Below are positions 2-45,899 of a stretch of 64,000 nt of DNA, piece after piece. A program made the position numbers and the translations under genes. Source of the stretch: Candidatus Versatilivorator sp. (GTDB taxonomy: Bacteria; Acidobacteriota; Terriglobia; Versatilivoradales; Versatilivoraceae); NCBI GenBank assembly GCA_965207735.1, contig OZ242296.1, positions 1,248,001 through 1,312,000 on the forward strand. Reading direction: 5' to 3'. Numbering within the stretch: the stretch's first letter is position 1; the number at the start of each line of letters is the position of its first letter. The notes beneath the pieces are model-generated. The model had not been told where the DNA came from. It was given only the letters and a program-made list of their open reading frames with translations, and searched no databases.

Positions 2-70
2 CTTGCCCGTTTCCCGGGCGGGTGTAAACCATGTTCCCGGTCTAAAGTGTAAACGCCGTTCTCGGTTAGT
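2..70 (+). repeat. Degenerate repeat with IS481-terminus-like tandem TGTAAA motifs
   Basis: GTGTAAACCATGTTCCCGGTCTAAAGTGTAAAC. Bases 2-40 resemble 26337-26376 (CTTGCCCGaTTCCtGGGCatgaTGTAAAtgATGTT). Confidence 0.45.
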
Positions 71-75
71 GCCCG

Positions 76-145
76 GTATCACTCCCCCCTTGAGGGGGAG
101 TCGCAGAAGTCGAGCCGTATGGCGAAGGCTGATGCGGTGGGGGGC
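76..145 (+). repeat. REP-like palindrome (GTATCACTCCCCCCTTGAGGGGGAGTCG family)
   Basis: Hairpin CTCCCCC-CTTGA-GGGGGAG. An inverted related copy lies at ~26248-26315. Confidence 0.75.
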
Positions 146-348
146 GGTCGCCGGGCTTTCAGGCGGCGTCGTGCGGCCACGCCAAGTCCCTTCAGCGCTG
201 TCTTGATCCGCTGTCATTTCTTGTGCGACACGACTTCACAAATTTTCTGGCAAAAATCAGGGCAAGCTGCGATTCTTTCTCGAAGCCTTTAGCAGGCCGG
301 CATCTCGCGGTCGCTACCGGCCGCTTGTCGTTCAGGAGAAAATCTCAG

Positions 349-1350
349 GTGGGAAAGAAAAACGGCTTCATGGTCGGGGTTGACCTTGGAGGGACCAGCA
401 TGATGGCGGCGGCGCTGGACAGCCGCGGCCATGTGCTTGCCTCCAGGAAGCGGTCCACTCGTCCCGGTCTGGGCCCCGAGGGCGTCACCCGTAGAATCGC
501 CGGGGCGGTCCGCAAGCTCCTGAAGGAGCTGGGAAAGAAATCGAAACGGGTTCAGGGTGTCGGGATCGGAGCTCCGGGAACCGTGGATCCTGAGACGGGA
601 GTGGTGCTCTACGCCCCAAACCTGGAGTGGCAGGACCATCCCCTGGCAAAAAGGCTCAGCCAACTCCTCGGACTGCCGGTGACCCTGGACAACGACGTCA
701 ATGGAGGCGCTGTCGGCGAACACGCACTCGGTTCCGGGCAAGGGGCCAGGAACCTGGTGGCGATTTTCGTCGGAACCGGCATTGGCGGCGGGGTCATTCT
801 GGAAAACCGGCTCTACCACGGAAGCTGCGGTGGGGCCGGAGAGGTGGGTCACATCAAGATCATGGCCAACGGGCCCCTTTGCGGGTGCGGGCGCAAGGGC
901 TGCGCCGAAGGGCTGGCCAGCCGCACGGCCATGGAGCGCGACATGCGTCGCGCCGTGGATTCGGGGCGAACCAGCCTGGTTCCGGCCATCATGGCCGGAA
1001 TGGGCCGGGAGCGCATGACCAGCCGGGTGATTGAAGAGGCGCTTCAGGCCGGAGATCCCCTCATGGAAGAAATTCTGGATCGGGCCCAGAACTGCCTGGG
1101 GCTGTTGGTGGCCAGCCTGGTCAACCTGCTGGATCCCGACTGCGTGGTCATTGGCGGAGGCATTGCGGATCGGTTGAAGGACCGGTTCCTGGAGCCGATT
1201 CGGGCAACGGCCGACCGGCACATTCTCAGGGCGCCACACCTGGAACCGGTCAGGATCCTGCCCTCCCGACTGGCCGGCCACGCGGGCGCGGTCGGCGCAG
1301 CCGTGCTTGCCTGGAATCGGCTGGCAGGCATCAATCCGGCCGATTCCTGA
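349..1350 (+). CDS. ROK family sugar kinase (glucokinase-like)
   Basis: GVDLGGT, DNDVN, GTGIGGG, GEVGH and CGCGRKGCAE zinc motif. GTG start at 349 chosen after an AGGAGA RBS. Confidence 0.9.
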   Translation: MGKKNGFMVGVDLGGTSMMAAALDSRGHVLASRKRSTRPGLGPEGVTRRIAGAVRKLLKELGKKSKRVQGVGIGAPGTVDPETGVVLYAPNLEWQDHPLAKRLSQLLGLPVTLDNDVNGGAVGEHALGSGQGARNLVAIFVGTGIGGGVILENRLYHGSCGGAGEVGHIKIMANGPLCGCGRKGCAEGLASRTAMERDMRRAVDSGRTSLVPAIMAGMGRERMTSRVIEEALQAGDPLMEEILDRAQNCLGLLVASLVNLLDPDCVVIGGGIADRLKDRFLEPIRATADRHILRAPHLEPVRILPSRLAGHAGAVGAAVLAWNRLAGINPADS

Positions 1351-22695: not shown

Positions 22696-23196
22696 TCAGG
22701 GGACCGCGGAGCCGGAACCGGCTTCCCTGCTCCCTTCGAGACGCCGGTCGGCCCTCCCGGAGGCCAGGTAGCGCTTGGCGCAGGACTGCACCATGGAGAC
22801 CATGCCCATCAACCCCATGCTCTTCCCCATGGAGAGGTCCTTGCCGAAGATCCGGTAGACCAACTCACCGGGCACCTGGGCCAGGCTGGAGGCCGACTCC
22901 CCGGACAGGGTCTCGTCCAGAATGACGGCCATGCACTTGGCCGAGATCCCCTGGGGGTTCTCGACGGCGAAATGGAACTTCAGGGCCTGGCTGGGGAGCT
23001 CTTCGCACCAGACGTAGGCCTCCGACTCGCAAGCCGGCGTCAGGTGCGATTTGGGAAAGGGACGGGTGGCAATGAATTCCGGAACCGCCTTGAACCGGGA
23101 GGCGATGTCGATGAGCATCTGGATGCGCTCGTCGCGGTCGCCCGCCAGGTCCAGGTATTCCAGCAACATCGCCAGTCTTTCCGGGTATGGGTCCAT
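22696..23196 (-). CDS. SufE family sulfur acceptor
   Basis: PACESEAYVW conserved Cys, SufE-like layout; downstream of a rhodanese. Confidence 0.8.
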   Translation of the reverse strand: MDPYPERLAMLLEYLDLAGDRDERIQMLIDIASRFKAVPEFIATRPFPKSHLTPACESEAYVWCEELPSQALKFHFAVENPQGISAKCMAVILDETLSGESASSLAQVPGELVYRIFGKDLSMGKSMGLMGMVSMVQSCAKRYLASGRADRRLEGSREAGSGSAVP

Positions 23197-23255
23197 GATC
23201 ACCGAAGCACAACCTTGCGTTCCGCGACTGCGCCTGCCTTGCCGGGAATCGCGTC

Positions 23256-24119
23256 TTATGGCCTTTCGATGGGCACGTTGACCAGGTTGCCCCATTCCGT
23301 CCAGCTCCCGTCATAGTTTCTGACTTGCTGGAAACCGAGCAGATAGGTCAGAACGAACCAGGTGTGGCTGCTGCGCTCCCCGATCCGGCAATAGGCCACG
23401 ATATCGTCGCCGGGCTGCAGGTTGTTTTCCCCGGTGTAGATGGCTCGCAGCTCATCGGCGGACTTGAAGCTGCCGTCCTCGTTGGCCGCGCGAGCCCAGG
23501 GAATGTTGGCGGCTCTCGGAATGTGTCCCCCGCGCAGGGCGCCTTCGTTGGGGTAGGCCTCCATGTGCAGCCGCTCGCCTGTATATTCCGCCGGGCTTCT
23601 CACATCCACCAGGGGTCTGCCGGCCTGGACATGATCGAGCACCTGGTCTCGAAAGACACGAACCTTGCTGTCGTCCCTTTCCGGGGCCTGATAGTCGCTG
23701 GAGGGATAGTCGGCAGCCTCGGTCACCAGCGGCCGCCCCTCGTTTTGCCATTTCAGGCGCCCCCCATCCATGATCTTGGCATTGGTATGCCCGAACAACT
23801 GGAACACCCAGAAGGCGTAGCAGGCCCACCAGTTGCTCTTGTCGCCATACAGCACCACCGTCGTCTCCCGGGTGGCCCCGATCCGCCTCATCAGGGCTTC
23901 AAACCCCGACCTGTCGAGATAGTCGCGGCGCAGGGGATGGTTCAGGTCGCGGGTCCAATCGACTTCCACGGCGCCCGGGATGTGACCGGAGGCATAGAGC
24001 AGCGGATCCTCGTTGGATTCGGCAAATCTGAGATTGGAATCGTTCAGATGCTGAGACACCCACTCTGTCGACACCAGGGCGTCCGTACTGGCGTATCCTC
24101 GTTCTTCAATGGCACTCAT
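23256..24119 (-). CDS. Tandem-rhodanese thiosulfate sulfurtransferase
   Basis: [14 protein letters not shown] and YDGSWTEW. Confidence 0.93.
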
Positions 24120-24221
24120 AAAGCGTCCCTCCTTGTAAGGTTTAGCAGAGTTATACCATAGACTTCGCCGGTCGTCTTTCGATCCGCCCCTCCCCGGGAC
24201 CGAATCGCCCCCGAGGCGGTC

Positions 24222-26039
24222 TCACCAACCCAGCGGCTGGCCCTTGTTCTGTTCATCCAGCCACTCCCGGAGCGGGGCAAAGTAATCCAGAATAGCGGTG
24301 GCATCCATCTCCCGCTCTCCGGTCAGCGCCTCCAGCGCCTCCGGCCAGGGCCGGCTGATCCCCATGGCGAGCATGGCACGCAGGCGTTTTCCGGCAGGCT
24401 CGCTTCCATAAATGGAGCATCGATGGAGGCTGTCTTCACAGCCGGCTTCCCCGGCCAGGGCTCGATGGAACTGAAACTGCAGGATCTGGGCCAGAAAGTA
24501 CCGCGTATAGGGCACGTTGGCCGGCACGTGGTACTTGGCGCCCGGATCGAAATCGCTTTCGTCGCGAGCCACGGGAGGCGCGATGCCCTGGTACCTGCCT
24601 CTCAATTCCCACCAGGCCTCATTGTAGCGGTCAGGCGGAATCTCACCGGAGACTACCTTCCAGCGCCATTGGTCCACCAGCAGGCCGAAAGGAAGGAAGG
24701 CAATCTTGTCCAGCGCCTGGCGCAGCAACAGCCCCAGATCCTTGGAAGGCGGGGGAACCTTGTTCAGCAGCCCCAGTCTTGCCAGGTAGGCCGGCGTGAT
24801 CGAGAGCGCGATGGTGTCCCCCACCGCCTCGTGGAATCCGTCGTTGGCGCTTTCCCGGAAGAGGACCGGCTGCTGGTTGTAGGCTCTCTGATAGTAGTTG
24901 TGACCCAACTCGTGATGGATCACGTTGAAATCCTCGGCGGTGATGTCGATGCACATCTTGATGCGCAAGTCCTCGCGCGAATCGAGGTTCCAGGCACTGG
25001 CATGGCAGACGACGTCCCGGTCGACGGGTTTTTCGAACAGAGATCGATCCCAGAAGCTTTGCGGCAGGGGGGCGAAACCGAGCGAACTGAAGAAGCCCTC
25101 CCCGTAGGAAACCATTTGCCGCGGGGTCGTCTTGCGAGACTGAAGAATCCGGGTGAGATCGAAGCCCGGATCGGTTTCCCGCGGCGCAACCAGCGGATAG
25201 ACGTTGGACCAGGTCTGCGCCCACATGTTACCCAAGAGATGGGCCGGTATGGGGCCGTCGGCGGGAACCACCTCCGGCCCGTAATGGGCTCGCAGCCGCT
25301 GTCTCACGTAGGCATGCAGCGAGAGATAAAAGGGCCGCACCTGCTCCCACAGGCGGTCCAACTCCTGCCGGAAGGACTCGGGGGACATGTCGTACTTGGC
25401 CCGCCACATGGCTCCGGTATCCGAGAACCCCAAGCTGCGGGCTCCCTGGTTGGCCAGTTCCACGTATCGCTGAAAGTCCTTTCGCATGGGAGGGGCAATG
25501 CTTCTCCAGCCAATCCAGGCTTCTTGCAGGATTTCCGGATCCCGGCTGGCGGCCATGATCCGGGAGAGTTCCTGCAGGTCTCGACATTCCTCGCCGGCCT
25601 TGCCGCAAACCTTCCCTTTGCCGTACCGGGATTCCATCGACGTCACCAGCCGGGTGAGTTCCTCGCTGGCCTTGGGATCGGGAGGGGCGGCCAGCGTCAG
25701 CGACAATCGAAGCAGTTCCAGTTTCCTTGCCACCTCCCGCGGCAGATCGGCCGTTTCGAAGCCCGCGGACTCCTTGGCCAGTCTGGCGGTGGCCTCAATG
25801 GCCCGATTGCTGGCCAATGCAGCCAGAGTCTGAGTGTCCCCGGTGATGTAGGTCGACCGGACCCAACTGGCGCGGGCGGCCTCGGTCCACAGCGCCAGCA
25901 GTTGCTCTTCCGCTTGGCGCACGAACTCCTCGGCCTCGGACGCGGCGGACTCGGCCTCCTCCGGCGATCCCGCCTGCGCCGACGACACGCCGGACGCAAG
26001 GGCCATGAAGACCCCAATGAAAATCTTCCATCTCCTCAA
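24222..26039 (-). CDS. M2 family peptidyl-dipeptidase (ACE-like)
   Basis: HHELGH, GFHEAVGD, HLLGNMWAQ and FDPGAKYHVP. TTG start after AAGGAGG; signal peptide. Confidence 0.93.
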   Translation of the reverse strand: MRRWKIFIGVFMALASGVSSAQAGSPEEAESAASEAEEFVRQAEEQLLALWTEAARASWVRSTYITGDTQTLAALASNRAIEATARLAKESAGFETADLPREVARKLELLRLSLTLAAPPDPKASEELTRLVTSMESRYGKGKVCGKAGEECRDLQELSRIMAASRDPEILQEAWIGWRSIAPPMRKDFQRYVELANQGARSLGFSDTGAMWRAKYDMSPESFRQELDRLWEQVRPFYLSLHAYVRQRLRAHYGPEVVPADGPIPAHLLGNMWAQTWSNVYPLVAPRETDPGFDLTRILQSRKTTPRQMVSYGEGFFSSLGFAPLPQSFWDRSLFEKPVDRDVVCHASAWNLDSREDLRIKMCIDITAEDFNVIHHELGHNYYQRAYNQQPVLFRESANDGFHEAVGDTIALSITPAYLARLGLLNKVPPPSKDLGLLLRQALDKIAFLPFGLLVDQWRWKVVSGEIPPDRYNEAWWELRGRYQGIAPPVARDESDFDPGAKYHVPANVPYTRYFLAQILQFQFHRALAGEAGCEDSLHRCSIYGSEPAGKRLRAMLAMGISRPWPEALEALTGEREMDATAILDYFAPLREWLDEQNKGQPLGW

Positions 26040-26247
26040 GGGAGACCTCCTTCTCCTGCCGCTCCGACCGGAGGGCCCACTCAGTTTATAGTCTGGTTTC
26101 GCCTCCCTCAATGTTTTTATTTTCAATGGATTTGCCGGGTAGCGGTCCCATTGCGGCAAATTGGAAGCGCCTTTCCGGATTGCACGGCGTTGCCAAAACG
26201 ACGATCCCGAGAAGTCACTGACCCTCACGTACATGGCGCCGCGTTGG

Positions 26248-26315
26248 CCCCCCTCCGGCTCGACTGCGGGCTTCGCCCTTGTCTCGCCGACTCCCCCTCA
26301 AGGGGGGAGTGATAC
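26248..26315 (-). repeat. REP-like palindrome, inverted relative of 76-145
   Basis: CGACTCCCCCTCAAGGGGGGAGTGATAC plus an internal GGGC-TTC-GCCC hairpin. Confidence 0.75.
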
Positions 26316-26393
26316 TTGAGGCCTGCACAAGGCGCCTTGCCCGATTCCTGGGCATGATGTAAATGATGTTTGCGGTTTTTTTTGTGGACGATG

Positions 26394-26606
26394 CCCACCC
26401 GGGAGCGCGGGCGTCCCGCCCGCACAATGCCTGGCACAGCCTCTGCCATCTCCGCCGCTCGGACCGACCCGGAACAGCGCCGTGGGTCTCCTTAGTCCTG
26501 GCCGTTGAGGTTCACGCCGACCCGGTGGCTGCCTGCAGCATCACCTTCAAGTTTAGCGGCAGCCAAAGGCATAAGGATGCGGGCGGGACGCCCGCGTTCC
26601 CGGGTG
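26394..26606. repeat. REP doublet (REPIN-like)
   Basis: CACCCGGGAGCGCGGGCGTCCCGCCCGCA (to 26424) and its inverted partner at 26578-26606; a third copy is at 45963-45993. Confidence 0.8.
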
Positions 26607-26716
26607 TTACCCCTCGCATCAATTGCTCCTTGTGCTTCCGGAGCCGGCCAAATAAACTGGTAGGTGGGGGTTGAAGGTCCAGGGCGCCGTCGCCATGCCC
26701 GGCCGAAAGGTGAGCC

Positions 26717-27292
26717 ATGCGAGGGTTCAACATCTTCGTCGTCACGATGGCTTTGTCCCTTGGGGCCGGATCGATCGGCTGCAGGGGCGAGGCCGGTTCG
26801 AAACAGGCCGCACCGCTTTCGAAGGCTGCTCCGTCCGACAGCGGCGGTCCCCCCGCAACCATCAGCATTTTTTCGGTAGAGAAGGGAGAGTTGGTCATGG
26901 TGAACAAGGTAGTCAAGTCCGAGGAGGAGTGGCGCAATCAGCTCACGCCCCTCCAATACAACGTGACCCGGAAGAAAGGGACCGAGCTCGCCTTCAGCGG
27001 CAAGCACAATTTTTCCAAGGAGCCCGGCATCTACCAGTGCGTCTGCTGCGGCACCGATCTGTTCACCTCCGACACCAAGTATGACTCGGGAACCGGTTGG
27101 CCCAGCTTCTGGGAGCCCATTGCTGCAGAGAACATCCGCACCGAAGCCGACAGGGCCTATGGCATGGTCAGAACGGAAGTCCTGTGCAATCGCTGCGACG
27201 CCCACCTGGGGCACCTGTTCAACGATGGACCCCAACCGACCGGCCTGCGTTACTGCATGAATTCGGCCGCTCTCAATCTCAAGAAGAAATAG
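26717..27292 (+). CDS. msrB: Peptide-methionine (R)-S-oxide reductase, probably exported lipoprotein
   Basis: [22 protein letters not shown] and RYCMNS; two CxxC zinc pairs; N-terminal signal with SIGC. Confidence 0.95.
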
Positions 27293-31581: not shown

Positions 31582-32236
31582 GGACAGACTCCTCCGAGGG
31601 GAAGGGACCGGGCCGGCGGACAGCAACTCACCGCCATCGGGCCGGGAAAAATGGCCTCAAGGAGGCACCCGGTTGCCCGAACCGCGCTGAACCTCCAGGT
31701 TCGCATTTTCGACAGCCTGGGGCTAGAAAAAACGGCGCCGCTCCAGCCGACTCTGCTGTTGGAGGGTTGGGACCCGGATCCGGCGCCGAAAAACCGATCG
31801 TGCCTTTGGCCGCGACCCGGAGTCGGCCATCATACTCGAAGACAATCCGGTGACCGAAGAAAAACTCAAGCTGGGCAGTCATCCTTTCTTCAGAGCCTGG
31901 ATTTCCATCGACCACTGAATTTCCCGGTCCTTCCGCCACCTTCTTGCGAAGGGTCTTGCCGATCCCGGGCAGCTATAAGCAGGCGCCGGCAGAAAACCGG
32001 CTGGGCGCCAGACTCCTCGGGTTTTCAACCAGCTGTTCAGCCTGCGTAGATTCTGCAACGGCCCTGCAGCCACGCTGGGAGAACAGCCCCCGGAACCGAT
32101 GCAGAAGACTCTGGAAGATGTCGCCGATTTCTGCAACAATGCGGGCCACGCCGACAAGCCACTGAACCCCAGCAAGCAGCCGCTATTCGCTTGTTCGGCA
32201 GCATCCACAAGGCGCTTGCCAGCTCGAGGAGGAGAG

Positions 32237-33049
32237 TTGTCACTGAAATTCATCCACATCACCGACTCCCACGTCGGCGAAACGGCCGACACCCTGTTGC
32301 ACTTCTATGCCTCCGGACGCGCCCTCAGCGCTGCCCTGGCCCACATCGCCGGCCACGATCGCCATGGAGCCGCCTTCATCGCCCACACGGGCGATATGAT
32401 TTGCACCTCCTCCCGCCCCGAATCCTATGAGGGCGCCCGCGCCATCTACGGACTGGAGGGCGACGCTCCAGCGCCGGGTCCGCTGGTTGCTCGCGCTCAT
32501 GGCCTGGATCTGCCCTGGTATTACATTCCAGGCAACGCCGACGACCGCGACGCCTGCAGAGCGCGCATCTTTCCCCAGGGCCCTCGTCACGGCCTCTTCA
32601 ACTACAGCTGGGAAGTCGGGGGTATCCGCTTCCTCAGTCTCGACTGGGGTGCATGGAAGACCGACGTCTATACTCTGGAACCGAGCGCCTTCGCCTGGCT
32701 GGAAACGCAACTGCAGCAATCGGTTCCCACCATCATCCTCACCCACCACCCACCGGTCCATGTCGGGGTGGAGATGTTCGACAAGATGACGCCGGAAGAT
32801 CTACCGCGCTTGCAGAACCTGATTCGCGACTCTTCGGTGGCGGCGATATTCCACGGACACACCCACTACCCCTGGGAAACGCGCATCGGACGGGTGCCCG
32901 TCTTCGGCACCGGGTCCATTACCTACCGGCTGAGCTATGATGAGGGTCCCCCGCACCTGAAGCTCTTTCCGCCGCAATACCGAGTGGTGACGGTGAAGGA
33001 TGACGGATCGGTGAGCACCGAATTGTGGGAAGCGGAGCTGCCCGCTTAA
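32237..33049 (+). CDS. Calcineurin-like metallophosphoesterase (Icc/CpdA-like)
   Basis: ITDSH, HTGD, PGNADD, THHPP and HGHTH. TTG start after GAGGAGG. Confidence 0.85.
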   Translation: MSLKFIHITDSHVGETADTLLHFYASGRALSAALAHIAGHDRHGAAFIAHTGDMICTSSRPESYEGARAIYGLEGDAPAPGPLVARAHGLDLPWYYIPGNADDRDACRARIFPQGPRHGLFNYSWEVGGIRFLSLDWGAWKTDVYTLEPSAFAWLETQLQQSVPTIILTHHPPVHVGVEMFDKMTPEDLPRLQNLIRDSSVAAIFHGHTHYPWETRIGRVPVFGTGSITYRLSYDEGPPHLKLFPPQYRVVTVKDDGSVSTELWEAELPA

Positions 33050-35553
33050 CAACAGGACGAGCTGCCGGGAGAACAGCAGTCGTCCTGGACCAGTAGCAGT
33101 TCCCGACCCTGCCCCAGAATGAGGAACGACCCCCGGTAGGGGGGGCGGCTGAGCTTGGCAGCCGTATCGATGGAGACCTCAATCGGTTCGTTGCGCGGGA
33201 AGAGGTTCCCTTCCTCGTCCATGACGGCCTTTTGAGGTCCGAGATAGACGGCCCGCTGCCCCGCGAAGCGACGATTGGCGGTCTTTTCGAACTTGAATCC
33301 TCGCAGGGTGACGGAGTAGAAGGTGCACCCCTCGACTGTCTTCCAGTAGTCCCTCTTCAGGATTTGAAGCCCGTGGAATCCTGCCTGTTCCAGGTAGGTC
33401 ATGAATTCCTCTTCGGTTAGTGCTCCCGACAGGCACTCTCCCCACAATCTCGGATTGACCCGCAGGTGGTCGGGCACGGATTCCCGGCTGACAATGTCGC
33501 TCACCACGGCGCGGCCATGATCCTTCAGCACCCGCCATATTTCTCCAAAGACCGCCTTCTTGTCGGGTGAGAGGTTGATGACGCAATTGGAGGTGATCAG
33601 GTCAACGGTCTTGCTCTCCACCGGAATCTGTTCCAGGAAGCCGCGCCGAAACTCAACCACGTCGTAGCCGAGCTTTTCGGCGACAGCGGTCCGATTTCGA
33701 TTGGCCACGGCCAGCATCTCTTCGGTCATGTCCACGCCGATGACCTTTCCCTGGGGACCTACTTTCCGGGCGGCGATGAAGCAATCGATGCCGCCTCCCG
33801 ATCCCAGGTCCAGGGTTGTTTCTCCGCCAACCAGTTGAGCCAGGGCAAGCGGAGAACCACACCCGTAAAAGCGGTCCATCACTTCCTTGGGGATATGGCT
33901 GACCTCGGCCGGATCGAGCTCCATGGTACAGCAGAGCTCCGCCTGGGGCTTCTCCGCGGCCTTGGTATAGAACTCCCGCACCACTTGGCGGGACCGTTCG
34001 ATATCGAAGGCCAGCACGCAGTTGGAGTGAAGGGTGGCTACGGCGGTCCGGTCGCCCACATCGATTTGGTCCCTGTCGGCGCCGCAGGCCACGGCGCCTT
34101 CACCCATTGAATGGAAGACCGCCGGGGCGTCAAAACCGGAACGGCCGTTCAGGCTGCGCTTTTTCTCCTGAGCCAACTCGACCATGATGTCCTGGGCCAG
34201 GACGCGGTAGACCTCATAGTAAGGGTCGGGGGCATGCAGATCCCCCGCCCCGGCCCCGTCGGCGCTGAAGAAATAACTGTGCTCGATATCTCCACCTCCC
34301 AGGATGAATCGGAAGGGGTCGTCCCGGAGCCAGGACTTGTTCGCAACCGAGGCCTGACGAAAACGTCGGGCCACCGGAGAGTCCTGCCAGATCTGACGCA
34401 AATTCCCGTTGTCTACCATGCCGGCGGCCAGGGGTTTGTGGTTGGCGCAAGCCGCCGAAGGATAGACGGTGCCGTCGGAATAGACACACAGGGAATCCCA
34501 GAACTGGTTCCCCAGGTCATGCTTGACGCCCGGCCGCCCGTTGACCCGAAGCTTCAAGGACTCCAGATTGTCCAGCCCGACCCCCAGCCTTGCGGCTTCT
34601 TGAGCGGTGGCCCGGGCAGCTCCTATCAGATCCTCGCAGGAGGGGAATGCTTCTTGCTCGGTCTCCAGGACCCGCCCCCGCCGGTGCATCCACATCAGGT
34701 GTTGGGACTGCGCTCCCCAGTCCTTGACCATGCGCGTGATCAGGGGCAGCTCCTCCAGGTTTTCACGGGTGACCACGGTGGTCACGGAAACCGGGAACCC
34801 CATCCCGGCCACCGCCCGGGTCCCTTCGCCAATCCTGTCGAAGGTGCCGCGTCCACGGTAGCGATCGTTGGTTTCGGCCGCGGCGCCGTCCAGCGAGATC
34901 TGAAGCCGCAGGCGGTCCCGACCGAATCGACCGAGCCGCTCCAGCCGCTTTCCCTGGAACAGCATCCCGTTGGTCAGAATAATGAGCTCGGCCTGCTTCC
35001 TTTCGGTGACGGCCTCAATCAGCTCAAAGATATCGGGACGCGCGAAGGGCTCTCCTCCCGTGAAGTAGAAGCGCTCCACTCCGCACTCGCAGGCCTGGTC
35101 GATGATGTGGAGCAGTTGAGAGGTGGGGAGTCCCGGATCCGCCGCCGGCGATGAGCTGACCAGACAGTGGGTACAGGAGAGATTGCAGGAGTTGTTGGTG
35201 TGGATCCAGACCTCGGAGAGCTTGTCCGCACGCAGATGGGCCGAGCGACCGGCATAGGGAGGGCGCTCCAAGGGTGTGAAAGACACCATGCCCGTTCGGA
35301 GACAGTCGCGGACAAAGGAATGCACGTGCAACCAGGACCTGGCGGCATCCAGCTGAAGCCATTCCGCGTAACGCCGGCTCAGTGCTCCAATCGCCAGGGG
35401 CTCTCGCATCCATTCCAGCAGCCTGGCTCCCTTCCGGCCGGTAGCCAACCAGTTGGGCGCCTCGCCATCGATATAGAACTGCATGCCCTCCCGCTCCAGG
35501 TGGGACAAGTCGGGCAAATAGAGACGCTGGTCTTCCTTGAGCTCCACCATCAC
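33046..35553 (-). CDS. Radical SAM - arsenite methyltransferase (ArsM-like) fusion protein
   Basis: CNLSCTHC and FTGGEPF. The C-terminal half carries [33 protein letters not shown] and WGECLSGA, with a Cys-rich tail. Confidence 0.88.
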
Positions 35554-35572
35554 GGTCTCCTCGGGCTCTCCA

Positions 35573-36403
35573 CTAGTTCCAAAGCCGCATCACCCAATCC
35601 ACCACTCTGGGCTTGCCGAACACCACATCGTAGCAGCCGCCCTTGCGGCTCTTCTCATCCCGACGCAACCAGTGGAAGCTGCAACCGGCCTCGCGGGCCA
35701 ACACCGGGGTGGCCGCCACGTCCCAGAGGCGCAGATCGGGATCGATCATGGCCCCCACCGAGCCTTCCAGGGCCAGACAGTGACCGAAGCAGTCGCAGTA
35801 GGTCCGAATGCTGGGATGGGACCGATAGAGGTGTTCCAGCACATCCGCCTTGCCTGCCTTGTGGAACTGGGCTCTCTCTCCAATCGACAGAATCTCCTGT
35901 TCTAGAGTATCGTCCCGCGCGAGGTCGGCAACCTGAAGTCTGCGGCCGTTGCACCAGGTTCCCAAACCCAGGGCCCCGCTGTAACAGCGTTTCAGACCCG
36001 GCAAGTCGATCACACCCAGGACCGGTTGGCCGCGAACGTGAAGAGCCAGGATCGTTCCAAACAGTGGGACTCGATGGCGCAGGCTGCGGGTTCCGTCAAT
36101 GGGGTCGATAATCCACTGGTAATCCGCATCCGGGTTGCAGGCGTCAAATTCCTCACCCAGAATGCCATGGGAGGGGAACCAACCGTTCAAGGCCGAACGG
36201 ACATGCTCTTCCACGGCCAGGTCCACATCGGTCACAAAAGTGCTGTCCGCCTTCAAACGGTGGCTGATCCCTCGAGCCAGGGCCTGGTCGATCAGACACC
36301 TGGTTTGGGCCGAAAGCTGCCGCGCCTTTTCCAACAGTCCGGCCAGCTCCTCCCTCGCGGGCAGCGCATCACTTCCCGACGTTCCTTTGCTCGCCTGGCT
36401 CAT
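35573..36403 (-). CDS. Inositol monophosphatase / HisN-type phosphatase family
   Basis: ILGEE, WIIDPIDGT and LWDVAA. Confidence 0.88.
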   Translation of the reverse strand: MSQASKGTSGSDALPAREELAGLLEKARQLSAQTRCLIDQALARGISHRLKADSTFVTDVDLAVEEHVRSALNGWFPSHGILGEEFDACNPDADYQWIIDPIDGTRSLRHRVPLFGTILALHVRGQPVLGVIDLPGLKRCYSGALGLGTWCNGRRLQVADLARDDTLEQEILSIGERAQFHKAGKADVLEHLYRSHPSIRTYCDCFGHCLALEGSVGAMIDPDLRLWDVAATPVLAREAGCSFHWLRRDEKSRKGGCYDVVFGKPRVVDWVMRLWN

Positions 36404-36406
36404 GGC

Positions 36407-36670
36407 TCACCCGCCGGCAACGGCCGGAACGAACAGCACCTCGCTCTGGGGAGGGACTTCGAACTCCAAAGCCTCCCGCCGAACCATCCCGTCCACAAAG
36501 ATTGCCAGGCCCGACCGGAGATGACCGTTCTCCACCAGGCGGTCCCGAATCCCCGGGTAGAGCAGCTCCAACTGGTCGATCAAATCTCCCACCGTCCGCC
36601 CCTCGACTTCCAGTTTCCTGACGTCGCCCGTCAAGGAGTGCAGCAAAGCCGGGATGTGGACAATAGCCAT
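36407..36670 (-). CDS. MoaD/ThiS family ubiquitin-like sulfur carrier
   Basis: About 87 aa, beta-grasp pattern, C-terminal PAVAGG. Confidence 0.88.
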   Translation of the reverse strand: MAIVHIPALLHSLTGDVRKLEVEGRTVGDLIDQLELLYPGIRDRLVENGHLRSGLAIFVDGMVRREALEFEVPPQSEVLFVPAVAGG

Positions 36671-36775
36671 GATGTCGCCTTTCTTTTCTCGCCGACAGGT
36701 TCCGATCACAAAAAAGGGCTCGAAGCCGCTTCCCCGGCCTCGAGCCCGATTGCTCCGTCTGAAGATCAGGTTCCC

Positions 36776-39070
36776 TCAACTCTTGGCCGAGAGCGCCTTC
36801 ACCACCCGTTGGGGAGACATGGGAAGATCGCCGAGGCGCGTCCCGACAGCCCGAGCGATGGCATTGGAGACGGCGGCCTGGGGCGGGACGATGGGCACCT
36901 CGCCTACCCCCCGCACGCCGTAGGGATGCCCCGGGTTGGGCACTTCCACGATGACGGTCTCGATCATGGGCAGATCCAGGCTGGTGGGCATGCGGTAATC
37001 CAGGAAGCTGGAATTCATCAGATGCCCGTCTTCATTGTAGTAGTACTCCTCGTTGAGAGCCCAGCCGATGCCCTGCACCACTCCGCCCTGCATTTGGCCT
37101 TCCACGTAACTGGGGTGGATGGCTCTGCCGGCGTCCTGAACGGCCGTGTACCGCAGAATGGTGACCTTTCCGGTATCGGGATCGACCTCCACATCCACGA
37201 TGTGGGTGGCGTAGGCCCCTCCGTGGTTCTGGGGAGTGACCGTCTCCCGGGATCCGATGTCGATGCCCTTCTGGCTGAGGTCGGCCGCCAACTCCTTGAT
37301 GGAAATGGACTTGGAGTCGCCGTTGGTGGTTGCAATCACTCCGTCGGCCAACGACACCTGGTCCTTGTCGACCTTCCAGATTGCGGCCGCCTGCTCGATG
37401 AGTTGGCTCCGAATGGACTGACCCGCGTTATAGGCCGCCCAACCCGTGGCGAAGGTGACCCGGCTTCCTCCCGTGACCTCCGTATATCCCACCGAATCGG
37501 TATCGGCCACCGAGGGAACGACGTCCTCGACCGGAATCCCCAGAACCTCGGCCAACTGCATGGCGATGGAGGTCCGAGTGCCTCCGATATCGGTGGAACC
37601 CTCCTGCAGGGTGACGGTGCCGTCGCCGTTGAGCCGCGCGGTGACGCTCGAGGTCAGGCCCGCATTGACCCAATATCCTGAAGCCACCCCGCGCCCCCGG
37701 TTGGGTCCCTCCAGCGGAGTCTGGTAGTGCTCGCAGTCCCTGGCCGCTTCGGTGGTCTCCAGGCAGCCGATCCGAGGATGGGGAATCCCGTGGCACTGAA
37801 TATCGCCTTCCTTGGCTCCATTCTTAAGCCGGAACTCCATGGGATCCATATCCAGGATCTCGCAGAACTCGTCGATCATGCACTCGGCGGCAAATTCCGA
37901 ATTGGGGGCTCCCGGAGCCCGGTAGGCCGCCGTCTTGGGCTTATTCACCACCACGTCATACATGTCGATGGAGAGGTTCTCAACGTTATAGGGGGCAAAC
38001 ATGCAAATACCGCCCAGGCTTACGACGGAACCCGGGTAGCCACCGGCCTCGTAGGCCAGCATGGTCTCGGCCGCCGTGATGCGCCCCTCGTTGGTGACAC
38101 CCATCTTCAGCTTGACGTAGGAGCCGGAAGTCGGTCCGGTCGCCTGAAAGACTTCGGTCCGGTCCATCACCACCTTGACCGGCCGCCTGGCTTTCCGCGA
38201 GAGCACCGCGGCCACCGGCTCCCCGTACACCGGGATCTTCCCCCCGAAACCGCCTCCGATTTCGGTGGGGATGACCTTCAATTTCGAAACGGGAATTTCC
38301 AGAATCTGATGAACGCTGGTGCGGACGGTAAAGGCGCCCTGAGTGGTCACCCACATCGTCAGATAGCCATCCGGATTCCACATGGCGGTGGCGGCGTGGG
38401 GCTCGATATATCCCTGGTGGACGGTGGCGCAACGATACTCCCGTTCCAAAATATGATCAGCGGCGGCGAACCCCTGGTTGATATCCCCCAAGACGTGCCG
38501 AGAGTGAGAAGCCACGTTGCTGGGTTTGGAACTCTTCTCTCCCAGTTCGTCGGTGTAGAGATCGTCGTGCAACAAGGTCGAATCTTCCTCCATCGCCTTG
38601 AGCACGTCCATGACCGGCGGCAGCACCTCGTACTCGACTTCAATCAACTTGAGAGCTTCCTCGGCAATGTGCGGGCTGGTCGCCGCCACCGCCGCCACGG
38701 CGTGGCCGTGATAGACCACCTTGTCCGAAGCCATCACGTTGTCGCACATGGGCTTCAAGGGGACCTCGCCCAATTCTCCCAGATTGGCGGTGCGGCTCCC
38801 CGCGTCCGGGAAATCGGCTGCCGTCATCACCGCCTTGACACCGTAAAGGGCTTCGGCCTTTTCGGTGTTGACGGACTTGATTCGGGCATGGGCGTGAGGG
38901 CTGCGAAGGACCTTCCCATGGAGCATGCCCGGCAACTGGACGTCGGCGCCATAGACAGCCCTGCCCGTGACCTTGTCCACACCGTCATGGCGAATGGGCC
39001 GGGTCCCGATGACCTTGTACTTCTGTTCGACTTCCGTCTTGGCTGGGTCCATGGTCTGGGTGGGGTTCAT
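36776..39070 (-). CDS. Xanthine dehydrogenase family molybdopterin-binding subunit
   Basis: RSPHAHARI, HQGYIEPH, IGGGFGGK, AYRAPG, EGQMQGG and RGVGEVP. Confidence 0.93.
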   Translation of the reverse strand: MNPTQTMDPAKTEVEQKYKVIGTRPIRHDGVDKVTGRAVYGADVQLPGMLHGKVLRSPHAHARIKSVNTEKAEALYGVKAVMTAADFPDAGSRTANLGELGEVPLKPMCDNVMASDKVVYHGHAVAAVAATSPHIAEEALKLIEVEYEVLPPVMDVLKAMEEDSTLLHDDLYTDELGEKSSKPSNVASHSRHVLGDINQGFAAADHILEREYRCATVHQGYIEPHAATAMWNPDGYLTMWVTTQGAFTVRTSVHQILEIPVSKLKVIPTEIGGGFGGKIPVYGEPVAAVLSRKARRPVKVVMDRTEVFQATGPTSGSYVKLKMGVTNEGRITAAETMLAYEAGGYPGSVVSLGGICMFAPYNVENLSIDMYDVVVNKPKTAAYRAPGAPNSEFAAECMIDEFCEILDMDPMEFRLKNGAKEGDIQCHGIPHPRIGCLETTEAARDCEHYQTPLEGPNRGRGVASGYWVNAGLTSSVTARLNGDGTVTLQEGSTDIGGTRTSIAMQLAEVLGIPVEDVVPSVADTDSVGYTEVTGGSRVTFATGWAAYNAGQSIRSQLIEQAAAIWKVDKDQVSLADGVIATTNGDSKSISIKELAADLSQKGIDIGSRETVTPQNHGGAYATHIVDVEVDPDTGKVTILRYTAVQDAGRAIHPSYVEGQMQGGVVQGIGWALNEEYYYNEDGHLMNSSFLDYRMPTSLDLPMIETVIVEVPNPGHPYGVRGVGEVPIVPPQAAVSNAIARAVGTRLGDLPMSPQRVVKALSAKS

Positions 39071-39555
39071 TTCTTCACCTCCAGTTGGGGTTCGGCATCA
39101 ATGATGGCACGCACAATCTTGTCATAGCCGGTGCAGCGACAGAGGTTTCCGGCACACCAGTGCCGGATGTCGCCCTCGCTCGCCTGAGGTTTTTTTTCCA
39201 GCAGGGCCTTGCCGGCCATGATGAAACCCGGCGTGCAAACGCCGCATTGCAGCGCGGCGTTTTCCAGAAACGTCTGCTGCAGCGGATGCAGGCCCTCCGA
39301 CCCCATCAGGCCCTCGATGGTCTCCACCGTGCATCCGTCGATCTCCGCGCCCAGAACGATGCAGGCATCCACCAGCAACCCGTCCAGGATGACGCTGCAG
39401 GCTCCGCAGTTGCCGTTGTTGCATCCCTCCTTGCTGCCAGTCAACTTCAACTCGTCGCGCAAGACCTCCAACAGGCTCTGCCTGGGCTCGCACAGGAATT
39501 CGACTGGTTCTCCGTTAATGGTCGCTGTCACATGAACTTTCGCCGCCATTCTCAT
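39067..39555 (-). CDS. Xanthine dehydrogenase family [2Fe-2S] subunit
   Basis: GCNNGNCGAC, QCGVCTPG and NLCRCTGY. Confidence 0.95.
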   Translation of the reverse strand: MRMAAKVHVTATINGEPVEFLCEPRQSLLEVLRDELKLTGSKEGCNNGNCGACSVILDGLLVDACIVLGAEIDGCTVETIEGLMGSEGLHPLQQTFLENAALQCGVCTPGFIMAGKALLEKKPQASEGDIRHWCAGNLCRCTGYDKIVRAIIDAEPQLEVKK

Positions 39556-40427
39556 TCCTCCTTGGCCCGTTCTAACGATTTCTCGAGTGCGCGCCGCGTC
39601 AACACTCCCGCCAGGTGCACCCGATACTCCTCGGTGCCCCTCATGTCTGTAATGGGTCGGGCCGCCGCCCGCGCGGCAGCCGCGGCTTTCTCGATGGCGC
39701 CGCCATCCAGTTCCGTGCCCTCCAGTTCAGCAGCCGCCTCCGCAACCAGCAGCGGCGTGGGAGCCACCGCTCCCAGGGAAACTCGCGCTTTCTTGACAGT
39801 GCGAAGATCGGATTCCATCTCCAGCGAAGCCCCACAGCCGACCACTGCGATGTCCATTTCGTTTCGCGGAATGAAGCGCAGGTAGTGGGCGCCGAAGTTC
39901 TTGGGGGGAGGAGGAACATGAAAGGAAACCAGCAATTCCTTGGGCCCCAGCACGTTCCTTCCCGGACCGGTGCAGAATTCTTCCACCGGCACGGTGTGGG
40001 TGCCTCCTGCCCCGGCGATCAGGCAGACAGCCGAATGGGCGATCAGGGCGGGAATGGAGTCGGCCGCCGGCGAGGAGTTGCACAGATTGCCGCCGAAGGA
40101 AGCCCGGTTCTGGATCTGGGTGCCTCCAATCAGCAGGGCGGCGTCGTTCAGGCCGGGATAAAGCTGTGAAATTCGGGCGTCTTCGTAAAAGCGGACACAG
40201 GGAACCGAAGCACCCAGGGTCAGTCCCGATTGGGAATCGAAAGACAGTTCCATGAGTTCGGCGATCTTCTTGCCGTCCACAATGAGGTCCAGATCGCGCC
40301 TGTTCTCCCTGACCTGGACGATCAGGTCGGTCCCGCCGCTCAAAATGCGGGCCCGTTCACCCTTCTGCTCCAACAAGCTCACCGCTTCCGATAAACTCTT
40401 GGGCGCTACATAGTCAAAAGCTTGCAA
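39552..40427 (-). CDS. Xanthine dehydrogenase family FAD-binding subunit
   Basis: SGGTDL and QIQNRASFGGNLCNSSPAAD. Confidence 0.93.
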   Translation of the reverse strand: MQAFDYVAPKSLSEAVSLLEQKGERARILSGGTDLIVQVRENRRDLDLIVDGKKIAELMELSFDSQSGLTLGASVPCVRFYEDARISQLYPGLNDAALLIGGTQIQNRASFGGNLCNSSPAADSIPALIAHSAVCLIAGAGGTHTVPVEEFCTGPGRNVLGPKELLVSFHVPPPPKNFGAHYLRFIPRNEMDIAVVGCGASLEMESDLRTVKKARVSLGAVAPTPLLVAEAAAELEGTELDGGAIEKAAAAARAAARPITDMRGTEEYRVHLAGVLTRRALEKSLERAKEE

Positions 40428-40620
40428 TAGGGTCCCTCACTTTCTCAACATGCTCAACTCGAACTCTTCGAGGAAAAACCAAGTAGATTGGACAGCGCTA
40501 TTTTACGGATCGAAAGGCTCGCATGCAATCGACTTTATGGCTTTCAATCCAGAATTGTCCGAAGAGTGCCGGAGTTGACCCCTCCCGGCAAGAATGTAAC
40601 ATTGCCAAAGGAAGATCACC

Positions 40621-42215: not shown

Positions 42216-44171
42216 CTACACCTTGAAAATCACGATGACGGTGATTCCCAGGAAGAAGAGGCCGCAGCAGACGAGGCCGATCCTGCTGAGCCAGCCGGGC
42301 CGCAGTTCGGGGGGCAGCAGCGAATGGTTGAGGTAGAGGACATGCAGCGAGCTGGCTCCCAGGGCCACGTTCATCAGCACCGTTCCCACCTTGGCGATCT
42401 GGAGGGGGTTGAACAAGGAGAGGGCGAACAGACCCCAAATCCCATAGGCCAGCAGGATTCCGTAGTAGATGAACTTGACCTGGTTTCCTCCCAGCGTCCG
42501 GGCTCGGCGGCTCACCGTCCAGATGATGTCGGTCCAACGCCTGGCGATGTTGTCCCCGGAGTGGATCTGGTTGGGAGCAAGAACCAGGAAGCTGATCATC
42601 AGGGTCAGCGGCCACAGGATATAGCCGAAATCGGGGTAGCGGGAGGCCAGACCGTCCGCCACCATGGCGCCCACCCGGTTTCCCGAAATGGGCGCGTTGC
42701 GGATGAACTCCAGCGACAGCATGCAGGGGAGGGCCATGCCCAGAAAGCTGCCAATCACCCAGATGGCCTGGTCCCGGCGTATCTGGCTGAGCCAGCCCCT
42801 CCACCGCTGGAGGGATTCCCTGCTGATGGCAAAGACCTCACCCACGTGGGAGAGGCTGATGGTCAGTCCTCCCACGGCACTGGGGATGGCCCCGACCCGG
42901 GCCCCCATGCCCCAGCCCTTGTCTCGGGTATAGTTGGAGAAGAGGCTGTTGGACAGGCCGCCGGCGCCGGCAATGGCTGCAAGACCGGCCAGCATGGCCC
43001 ATTCCAGGTAGGGCAGCCGTCCATGCTGGCGGGCGTAACCGATCAGGCTCACCAGCTCCAGCCCCTGGCGGTCCACCAGTTCTCCCAGGCGGCGGGCAAA
43101 GGCCGGTGGCAGATCTTCCAGGTTCTCGAAGCGTTTCACCAGACCGTTCCGCTTCACGAAAAATGCGGCGGGGACCCAGGATCGGTCGGAAGCGATGCTG
43201 CCCTCGGCCGACAAAACGGCCGTCCCCTCCACAACCTCCAGGTAGAACCCTCCTTTTCGAGCCAGCCTTCCAGCCTGTTCCAGCATGCGCCTGCGCCGGT
43301 TTTCCAGGCCGGGAGGAATCGGGTCTCCAATTCCGAAGGTCTGCATGCTCCCTTCCCGGTCCACTGCAAATGACAGGACCACCGGCCGGCCGTTTTCCAG
43401 AGTTCCCCGAATGACGTAGCCGGCCTCGCCCTCCCGGGAGCTCAGGGTGAAATGCCCGTCGGCGATGACCGTTGCGGCGCGCAACGGAGCCGACCCCACC
43501 CGAAAGAACCCGCTGAACACCTCCCGAACGTTGCGCCCGGAGACCATGAAGAGCGAGGTGAAGGCGAGGAAGCTCAGCACGATGACCATCTTGGCCGTCA
43601 TGAGACGCTCGATCAAGCGGTAGACGGTGCCACCGAAGATCAAGGGCACGAAGGCCAGGATGAATATCAGGTAGCCCAGCACCTTGACCAGACCCGCTTC
43701 CGACATATCAAAGCCCAGCCAACTGGTCATCCCGGCGCCGGGCAGGTGGCCCAGCATGGCGGCCGCCAGGGGCACCGCCGCGTTGGAGGCCATGAAGGGC
43801 CAGATACTAGAAAACTCCAGAACCGCATAGAAAGGAATCCAGAAACGTCGACCGGGCCAGGATCGGCAGAACCCCACGTGCACCGGCTCACCGCAGTAGA
43901 GGGTGTAGCGCATCACTTCCAGGTTGTAGAACAACTGCATCAGGATGCTCAAACCGCCCAGCCAGAGGAGCGTCCCGCCATACTGGGCCGTCACCGCCGG
44001 ACCGAAGAGCCACTCTCCGGCTCCGATCGACACCCCCACCATGACGACCCCTGGACCGATGAGGGCCGTGAGCTGGCGCCATCCGAACCGGGGCGATGGC
44101 GGCAGTTCCCCCCTGTTCCAGGGAGGGATGCCGGGGTCCATGGATGGATTGGGTTGGGGGGTGTTGTTCAT
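42216..44171 (-). CDS. Nramp-like (APC superfamily) transporter with large soluble insertion
   Basis: IGPGVVMVGVSIGAGEWLFGP, RYTLYCGE and RDKGWGMG; many TM segments. Confidence 0.78.
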   Translation of the reverse strand: MNNTPQPNPSMDPGIPPWNRGELPPSPRFGWRQLTALIGPGVVMVGVSIGAGEWLFGPAVTAQYGGTLLWLGGLSILMQLFYNLEVMRYTLYCGEPVHVGFCRSWPGRRFWIPFYAVLEFSSIWPFMASNAAVPLAAAMLGHLPGAGMTSWLGFDMSEAGLVKVLGYLIFILAFVPLIFGGTVYRLIERLMTAKMVIVLSFLAFTSLFMVSGRNVREVFSGFFRVGSAPLRAATVIADGHFTLSSREGEAGYVIRGTLENGRPVVLSFAVDREGSMQTFGIGDPIPPGLENRRRRMLEQAGRLARKGGFYLEVVEGTAVLSAEGSIASDRSWVPAAFFVKRNGLVKRFENLEDLPPAFARRLGELVDRQGLELVSLIGYARQHGRLPYLEWAMLAGLAAIAGAGGLSNSLFSNYTRDKGWGMGARVGAIPSAVGGLTISLSHVGEVFAISRESLQRWRGWLSQIRRDQAIWVIGSFLGMALPCMLSLEFIRNAPISGNRVGAMVADGLASRYPDFGYILWPLTLMISFLVLAPNQIHSGDNIARRWTDIIWTVSRRARTLGGNQVKFIYYGILLAYGIWGLFALSLFNPLQIAKVGTVLMNVALGASSLHVLYLNHSLLPPELRPGWLSRIGLVCCGLFFLGITVIVIFKV

Positions 44172-45767: not shown

Positions 45768-45899
45768 TGGGCTCCTCAACAGGGGACTTCAGGCTTGGAA
45801 CACTTGTAAGCGGTGACCGGGCTCGGATTCTACACGAATTCGGGTCGGGCGCCTAATGGGAGACGAGGCCAACGGGCTCCCTTCCTGTTGAGCGAACCC

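Follow-up and report, generated by a model that had tools for sequence, protein, structure and literature searches.

Can one bacterial polypeptide methylate arsenic and then attach a further carbon group to it? This question is raised by a gene in a 64,000-nucleotide stretch of the Candidatus Versatilivorator sp. genome (Acidobacteriota; contig OZ242296.1, positions 1,248,001 to 1,312,000 of the forward strand, hereafter referred to as the window), where an enzyme of the radical S-adenosylmethionine (SAM) type is fused to an ArsM-type As(III) methyltransferase. The fusion is a real, conserved and uncharacterised enzyme, and sequence comparisons make it on balance probable that it is a one-chain equivalent of ArsM plus ArsS, that is, an ArsS analogue. 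An earlier note, made from the DNA alone, had read a four-cysteine ArsM joined to a radical SAM enzyme as a candidate organoarsenic synthase that may channel methyl-As(III) into a radical alkylation; the pairing itself, with C-As bond formation as the probable task of the radical half, is supported here. No description of this fusion was found in a literature search short on subscription papers, and an earlier description is possible.

The two halves of the fusion

The gene is one uninterrupted open reading frame (ORF) of 835 codons on the minus strand, counted from the GTG at 35553. A GGAG lies 6 nt upstream of the ATG at 35550, the next codon, and this spacing makes an 834-residue product likelier than one of 835; the nearest homologues have 833-834 residues. 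I recovered on this intact ORF the features read in the earlier note, namely the CxxxCxxC core (C123/C127/C130), the four methyltransferase sites ELCC (C541/C542), YGCG (C565), SNCV (C657) and GECL (C707), and the CC...CC tail, and found in addition an N-terminal RRE-like domain and a SPASM fold that were absent from that description (Table 1).

Homologues are numerous, with 830 proteins at E <= 1e-30 among 7989 candidates scored, the best 120 listed covering at least 91% of the query, and one public contig covers positions 32000-40500 of the window without differences; the gene is therefore neither a chance ORF nor an assembly fusion. Short contigs of two metatranscriptomes also lie on it, two pieces from X1 that differ at 0-2 positions and X2 sequence about 90% identical, and were given no weight because DNA carry-over is possible. 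Whole or contig-edge-cut fusions account for 33 of the 80 contig loci kept, and record titles place fusions in the Acidobacteriota, Elusimicrobiota, Omnitrophota, Nitrospirota and Planctomycetota, the nearest being from Terriglobia and Ca. Versatilivorator (80-98% identity). Split forms were sought, and the matches shorter than 459 residues are mostly partial proteins from short contigs.

Pfam places radical SAM at residues 120-270, a weak SPASM match at 351-400 and a methyltransferase at 576-725, and no NCBIfam model is over its cut-off among the 25 best of 78 families. A structure search with an AlphaFold2 model, built from an 82-row alignment, found that the N-terminal part resembles CteB, anSME, ChlB, SkfB and TigE, and the C-terminal part ArsM/AS3MT; CteB (5wgg) aligns to residues 14-464 (Z 30.0, root-mean-square deviation 4.5, 407 residues aligned). 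The ESM Atlas matched only generic radical SAM/SPASM clusters, and a single-sequence fold of residues 1-522, with a predicted local distance difference test score (pLDDT) of 42, was not used. The RRE-like domain of the window protein has no Pfam match at E <= 1e-4; PF05402 is above cut-off in two homologues (P0048 and P0082), and W35 of this domain is kept in 120/120 near and 101/102 distant fused homologues.

For the methyltransferase half, the five best PDB sequence matches and the top Foldseek matches are all ArsM/AS3MT. In the alignment with the Cyanidioschyzon ArsM (4kw7; E 7e-41), C565 pairs with Cys72, C657 with Cys174 and C707 with Cys224, and the C72A mutant structure (5eg5) has Ala in the C565 column. 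Structural alignments pair residues 537..817 with 39..344 of 6cx6_B and 540..816 with 44..343 of 4kw7, and set C541/C542 no more than 2 residues away from residue 44. The available text of PMC8552651 gives four cysteines as required for ArsM activity, and the fusion protein possesses all four catalytic cysteines of ArsM/AS3MT; C542, C565, C657 and C707 are each conserved in 82/82 aligned homologues. Scores against the ArsM hidden Markov models are 247.9 bits for PRK11873 (cut-off 263), 218.7 for methyl_ArsM (cut-off 500) and 159.6 for AsSugarArsM (cut-off 400), and the fusion is the only strong ArsM match of the host genome (250.3 bits, the next being 82.3). The window protein has Arg761 (33271-33273, -) and Ser794 (33172-33174, -) where 78/82 and 77/82 homologues have Cys, by the alignment a lineage-specific Cys loss in the ArsM C-terminal domain.

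In a tree of ArsM halves, 12 fusion halves fall into one starred group (98); its union with the ArsM halves fused to ArsS or to a short ArsS relative is unstarred, at 83. Related halves are fused to a true ArsS in L039 (399 bits) and to the short type in L035 and L036. Standalone archaeal and Chloroflexota ArsMs are placed apart, in a starred group of their own.

By model score, alignment and phylogeny, the radical SAM half is not ArsS. The ArsS model, TIGR04167, reaches 57.6 bits (cut-off 300) over positions 2-148 of 303, which is still its best match in the host, and the best NCBIfam match is the Rv1681 family (NF049973; 145.7 bits, cut-off 380), as it is for the short ArsS relatives. Profile alignment of the fusion with ArsS covers only 141 core columns, versus 268, including the C-terminal Cys, for the short type with ArsS. 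A tree of 57 cores separates a fusion clade (100/99) from a clade of ArsS and short-type sequences (100/99), with ArsS nested among the latter. The two clades join against 20 other SPASM enzymes at 81/84 only. The 57 cores are part of the 111 rows of a first, quick tree (where the same support was 87, and from which 4 further rows without usable core had been dropped); long branches and near-duplicates were excluded, and Rv1681 members were not placed. The fusion radical half may therefore be either a sister lineage of ArsS or an independent recruit. The domain search and phylogeny called for in the earlier note thus uphold a radical SAM enzyme, with RRE and SPASM folds and in its own clade, and rule out ArsS itself; for ArsL (NF040542), the protein has no RCCLKC motif and the model is not among the 25 best NCBIfam matches.

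The short radical SAM family (about 290-300 residues, far below the TIGR04167 cut-off) is found beside ArsM (L045:5884-6789, L100, L101, L103, L107, L109, L111, L138, L145) or fused to it (L035, L036). Among the matches listed it is present in 23/151 genomes of the host's phylum, 4 of which also have ArsS.

I then examined residue conservation in 120 near fused, 102 distant fused and 11 standalone homologues (233 in total). CxxxCxxC and H129 are invariant wherever covered, and H285 and C356 are invariant in 233/233; C490 is not conserved (Cys in 118/120 near and 36/102 distant). Cysteines at 409, 412, 418 and 446, the four expected of a SPASM auxiliary cluster, remain in 92-94 of the 102 distant fused and 11/11 standalone homologues; among near homologues, 409, 412 and 418 are never Cys and 446 is Cys in 0/120, and the window protein and 120/120 of these lack the CxxC-x5-C motif. 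No Cys is among the residues listed for any set at positions 349, 366 and 422, although L040, a divergent member, carries it at the latter two. A family-wide lack of SPASM cysteines (81/82 in the nearer alignment) was considered and rejected as a sampling artefact, since distant members keep the four. Their loss in the near subfamily suggests that the extra cluster is dispensable, which suits a redox-neutral radical addition; the ArsS reaction was reportedly described as redox neutral by Cheng in 2021.

Genomic company of the fusion and of ArsS

The host genome (5.26 Mb, 100% complete) has no ArsS over the TIGR04167 cut-off. It does encode TIGR04282 (C1:4822701-4823276; 189.6 bits, cut-off 134), 3.5 Mb from the fusion. 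Among 36 other genomes of the fusion family, 12 of them close kin, ArsS is found in 1, TIGR04282 in 34 (33 over cut-off) and TIGR04283 in 16; completeness is not given for 33 of the 36, and the recovery of TIGR04282 in 34 serves as an internal control.

Two samples unselected for the family show the same pattern. The host's own phylum (151 genomes) has TIGR04282 in 58, ArsS in 33 (32 of them TIGR04282 genomes), the fusion type in 4 and both enzymes in 0; the phylum of L026 (201 genomes, centre genome included) has TIGR04282 in 24, ArsS in 15, the fusion in 5 and both in 0, with neither enzyme in any of the 177 TIGR04282-negative genomes. When the TIGR04282 genomes are pooled, ArsS is present in 0/8 fusion genomes versus 47/74 others, with a Fisher p of 7e-4 (0.003 and 0.08 separately) that overstates the exclusion because kin are not independent. 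The first tally includes G023, flagged unpublished, which has TIGR04282 and neither of the enzymes; none of the claims depends on this genome alone. The fusion family is distributed as an ArsS stand-in, and since these genomes lack ArsS and keep TIGR04282, the fusion is likely a second route for attaching a carbon group to methylated arsenic.

Gene neighbourhoods agree with this distribution. Fusions of distant lineages recurrently lie beside TIGR04282, TIGR04283, VTT-domain, MerA-like PRK06370, Pit-family, DUF547, DUF3047 and GT87-like genes, and the same set accompanies true ArsS. At least one such marker is found beside 15/36 fusion-family, 13/25 ArsS, 7/26 short-type and 0/24 other radical SAM loci, a comparison tempered by locus length, since most controls span about 10 kb and many fusion loci are longer, reaching 22 kb; the control excludes L034 and L169, which had been fetched around ArsM or TIGR04282. 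On the sequence evidence, these shared neighbours and the fusions of related ArsM halves to ArsS count in favour of an ArsS analogue. One Omnitrophota genome (G176) carries two fusion copies (C94, C105), each immediately preceded by a TIGR04282 gene.

The survey of homologue neighbourhoods that the earlier note had proposed thus yields ArsS-type cluster genes in distant lineages and none at the host locus. Its observation that arsR, acr3, arsC and arsenosugar glycosyltransferase genes are missing from the window is correct: the single HTH_5 match, the ArsC-like gene and the TIGR04282/TIGR04283 matches are all located elsewhere, and a search for acr3 found none in the host genome. The step from there to another product, or to a non-arsenic substrate, is not supported, given the TIGR04282 gene and an aquaporin/ArsC-like pair elsewhere in the genome, the distant fusions inside ArsS-type clusters, and the stand-in distribution. 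The pair (G000:C1:5243332-5244437; L092:7332-8437, -) consists of an aquaporin-family gene and, immediately after it, a low-molecular-weight ArsC-like gene below its cut-offs, and is divergent from phoB; I take it to resemble the aqpS-arsC arrangement. A GT87-like gene followed by a DUF547 gene (G000:C1:3296956-3299287; L090) lies far from both the fusion and TIGR04282. The ArsS-type cluster looks scattered in this host.

Table 1. Positions, within the window, of the fusion gene, its parts and its upstream neighbours.
Feature	Positions	Strand	Remarks
Entire fusion gene (RRE-like, radical SAM, SPASM fold, linker, ArsM)	33046..35553	-	AlphaFold2 model, pLDDT 88.6, predicted template modelling score (pTM) 0.88
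PqqD/RRE-like N-terminal domain, about residues 17-87	35293..35505	-	Three strands followed by three helices; Trp35 almost invariant
Radical SAM core, about residues 112-330	34564..35220	-	PF04055 E 1.9e-22; conserved H129, H285, W288, H290
Radical SAM motif C123-C127-C130	35164-35187	-	CxxxCxxC
SPASM-fold domain, about residues 344-467	34153..34524	-	Auxiliary-cluster Cys absent; PF13186 20.2 bits, below cut-off
Invariant Cys356 in SPASM-fold domain	34486-34488	-	233/233 homologues
Linker/tail of radical SAM module, residues 474-515	34009..34134	-	Ends in Cys512
Cys512, Cys/Sec (selenocysteine) column	34018-34020	-	Alignment of fused and standalone homologues
ArsM/AS3MT-type As(III) methyltransferase, about residues 516-817	33103..34008	-	C541/C542, C565, C657, C707; AS3MT-like C-terminal domain
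CC...CC C-terminal tail	33049..33078	-	C827, C834, C835 in 79, 79 and 78 of 82; pLDDT <50
Inositol-monophosphatase-family gene	35573..36403	-	19 bp upstream of the fusion
ThiS/MoaD-like small protein ending in GG	36407..36709	-	Upstream; same restricted linkage
Terminator-like 13-bp hairpin with T tail	36716..36747	-	After xdhA, between the xanthine-dehydrogenase-family genes and thiS, inositol monophosphatase and fusion genes

At the host locus, the inositol monophosphatase gene and the fusion are probably co-transcribed, and a metallophosphoesterase gene converges on the fusion 3' end. Further upstream are the genes for a three-subunit xanthine-dehydrogenase-family molybdoenzyme (FAD, 2Fe-2S and Mo subunits; 36776-40427, -), below all named-family cut-offs, an Nramp-like transporter (42216-44171) and two sodium:solute symporters (44223-45779 and 46635-48149). 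The order xanthine dehydrogenase, ThiS, inositol monophosphatase, fusion is found only in the 12 close kin (inositol monophosphatase detected in 11 and XdhA in 10, with short contigs limiting the rest) and in L016/L017. I considered this link as a family trait and rejected it, because of this confinement and of the intervening terminator-like hairpin; terminator-like sites number 7 versus 7.1 expected by chance, and only this one has a long stem. Elsewhere in the window, positions 22696-27292 hold tandem rhodanese and SufE-domain genes, along with genes for an M2 peptidase of the angiotensin-converting-enzyme family and for MsrB (SelR).

Residue 512 and the standalone relatives

C512 is invariant in 120/120 near and 102/102 distant fused homologues (222/222). 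All 11 cluster representatives of a standalone sister subfamily (P0243-P0253) end one residue short of this column, and at 3/3 loci read as DNA (L104, 7781-9343, -; L174, 4550-6096; L175, 5001-6524) a TGA stands exactly in it. L174 and L175, 73% and 63% identical to L104, retain V-T-(E/Q)-(L/I)-R-R-P beyond the TGA with synonymous changes, and their hairpins are identical. A hairpin is present at all three loci, with a 5-nt loop starting 19 nt after the UGA, G at loop position 2 followed by U, and a 6-7 bp stem. Two 60-nt windows fold at -20.5 and -21.6 kcal/mol; a 66-nt segment folds no better than shuffles (z -0.91). The hairpin fits the model of the bacterial selenocysteine insertion sequence as laid out in the accessible portion of PMC13188914. 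On this evidence the standalone sister subfamily looks like a selenoprotein that has escaped annotation, gene callers having cut it short at the TGA; a term search of the available part of a 2026 review did not find this candidate. Cys occupies the column in fused L176 and L177, in divergent L040 and in standalone P0218 and P0220, and the window protein itself has Cys, not Sec.

A Cys/Sec swap is a sign of a reactive or metal(loid)-binding thiol. The same is argued in the available text of bioRxiv 2022.07.06.499078. By analogy with the arsenic-binding tail of ArsL, the alternation at 512 points to a catalytic Cys/Sec tail. The C-terminal extension of viperin closes its barrel, and CTP- or UTP-bound viperins align to the model out to residues 520-524, versus 390-395 for 5vsl/5vsm (range ends only), which hints that the linker of the modelled fusion occupies the place of that extension.

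Genome G054 has selA over cut-off, a tRNA-Sec of 66.8 bits and a second gene with a TGA in a Cys column. An ArsM-like methyltransferase without the first three catalytic cysteines and with one in-frame TGA occurs at L182 (G054:C5:180441-181115), where the TGA falls in the Cys224-equivalent column, and at L181 (G002). As a split partner of the G054 radical SAM gene it was ruled out, the other three cysteines being missing. The neighbourhood of L105 holds a DUF2064 gene below the threshold used.

Possible chemistry and known systems

If the fusion does the work of ArsM plus ArsS, the ArsM half would bind As(III) by means of the four cysteines and methylate it twice, to dimethylarsenite. This would pass to C512, held there as the thiolate, and the tail would present the arsenic inside the radical SAM barrel, as by analogy the Cys tail of ArsL might. 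The 5'-deoxyadenosyl radical would then add to arsenic, giving DDMAA (5'-deoxy-5'-dimethylarsinoyl-adenosine), the arsenosugar precursor, whose ribose TIGR04282, encoded elsewhere, or other enzymes could elaborate; the RRE-like domain would be structural or vestigial. Adenosyl addition presumably needs no auxiliary cluster, which would explain the loss of cluster cysteines in the host's subfamily. The formation of DDMAA from SAM and dimethylarsenic by ArsS is described in the available text of bioRxiv 2026.04.29.721666, PMC12159101 and PMC8552651.

A number of observations weigh against the fusion being an ArsS analogue. Its radical half fails the ArsS model, neither profile alignment nor consensus comparison found the ArsS-type C-terminal Cys pattern in it, its sisterhood with the ArsS clade is poorly supported in the tree, and the closest folds of the model are peptide maturases (CteB, anSME, ChlB, SkfB). 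The host fusion locus has no arsenic marker, TIGR04283 is over cut-off in neither the host nor its 12 close kin, and the 'arsenosugar' label of TIGR04282 is a database name for which no experimental test was found. One genome (G159) carries both fusion and ArsS, 11/58 TIGR04282 genomes of the own-phylum sample have none of the three radical SAM types, and that sample alone gives no significant association (p 0.16 and 0.08). The Sec-type relatives are unfused, with no arsenic genes beside them and Phe in place of His290; G054 (95% complete) has neither TIGR04282 nor a four-Cys ArsM, and searches of it for selB found none.

The best placed of the alternatives, though a doubtful one, is that the fusion makes a different C-As bond, by adenosylating monomethylarsenite held on C356 and C512, by an ArsL-like aminocarboxypropyl transfer, or by abstracting H from As-CH3 to form As-CH2-X or As-CH2-As. 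The separate clade and the active-site residues that differ from those of ArsS would agree with this, and a species that takes two thiols could be held by C356 and C512, both invariant and outside the cluster. TIGR04283 is missing in 20/36 family genomes and the host, G159 retains both enzymes, and ArsL is, by the available text of bioRxiv 2024.02.01.577332, an example of non-canonical SAM cleavage by a CxxxCxxC enzyme. However, no ArsL model is among the 25 best NCBIfam matches, and a common product is the simplest explanation for the near-complete exclusion of ArsS and the shared neighbours. A bolder version seems unlikely: a peptide-maturase-type RRE-radical SAM-SPASM enzyme would have been recruited independently to C-As formation, its Cys/Sec tail swinging as an arm between the fused ArsM and the radical site and delivering methylarsenic to the latter, to yield an organoarsenical unlike the ArsS and ArsL products, possibly methylene-bridged as in arsenicin A, with the standalone sister as an undescribed radical SAM selenoprotein.

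It is distinctly unlikely that the target of the radical half is a peptide, protein or cofactor engaged through the RRE, or else selenium, antimony or a thiol, the substrate of the 'arsenosugar' pathway being misnamed. Such a role would suit the fold nearest to peptide maturases, the conserved Trp35, the Sec-type members without arsenic neighbours, the selA found in 5/5 genomes tested, and the position of the gene behind a ThiS-like protein and molybdoenzyme genes in the host lineage. But that linkage is the restricted, hairpin-split one described above, the methyltransferase retains all four As-binding cysteines, and the fusion swaps places with ArsS, which is reported to act on arsenic (bioRxiv 2026.04.29.721666, available text). 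A precursor of a RiPP, a peptide made on the ribosome and modified after translation, was also sought: no short ORF within 1.5 kb is common to distant lineages at 20 loci (632 ORFs compared), and one elsewhere is possible. A plain detoxifying ArsM with the radical half as a passenger or independent worker, to which the missing acr3 (methylation could serve resistance) and the lost SPASM ligands would lend themselves, is very improbable, given the invariant CxxxCxxC and near-invariant pocket residues of 222 fused homologues, a fusion retained across at least 5 phyla, the separate group of standalone archaeal and Chloroflexota ArsMs, and the exclusion of ArsS, which a passenger would not cause.

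The available literature names two radical enzymes for biological C-As bonds, ArsS and ArsL; as an ArsS analogue, the fusion family would join them as the third, built on another scaffold. ArsS-based surveys would then miss organoarsenic producers: 8/82 TIGR04282 genomes across the two samples carry the fusion and no ArsS, and 16/58 in one sample carry a short ArsS relative below the TIGR04167 cut-off. The fusion would be one soluble, directly assayable chain, and the Cys/Sec column singles out residue 512 as the first mutagenesis target, besides exposing a candidate selenoprotein family.

Among known systems, the Rv1681 family is the best NCBIfam match of the radical half, yet over the core only and far below cut-off, and no mention of Rv1681 was found among the 10 papers that a literature search listed. 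The RRE-radical SAM-SPASM peptide maturases (CteB, SkfB, TigE, anSME, ChlB) share the predicted fold of residues 14-464; unlike them, the host's fusion subfamily has no auxiliary-cluster Cys and no conserved precursor ORF, and is fused to ArsM. ArsL of Burkholderia gladioli also works with an ArsM, in arsinothricin synthesis, and has a non-cluster arsenic-binding Cys motif at its C-terminus. According to the available text of bioRxiv 2024.02.01.577332 and bioRxiv 2026.04.29.721666, this motif binds As(III), and without it SAM is cleaved but no product forms. The fusion differs in its SPASM-type architecture and in having neither the RCCLKC motif nor an ArsL match. Relative to ArsS, it has an RRE-like domain and a full SPASM fold, stands outside the ArsS and short-type clade, and lacks the ArsS C-terminal Cys pattern. 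It nevertheless shares with ArsM plus ArsS (TIGR04167) of Synechocystis sp. PCC 6803 the combination of an As(III) methyltransferase bearing four Cys and a radical SAM enzyme with CxxxCxxC, and with ArsS more widely the neighbour genes, the genomic partnership with ArsM and TIGR04282, a natural fusion to ArsM (L039), and a Cys or Sec near the C-terminus of the radical module, ArsS also occurring as a selenoprotein with the motif GxxU.

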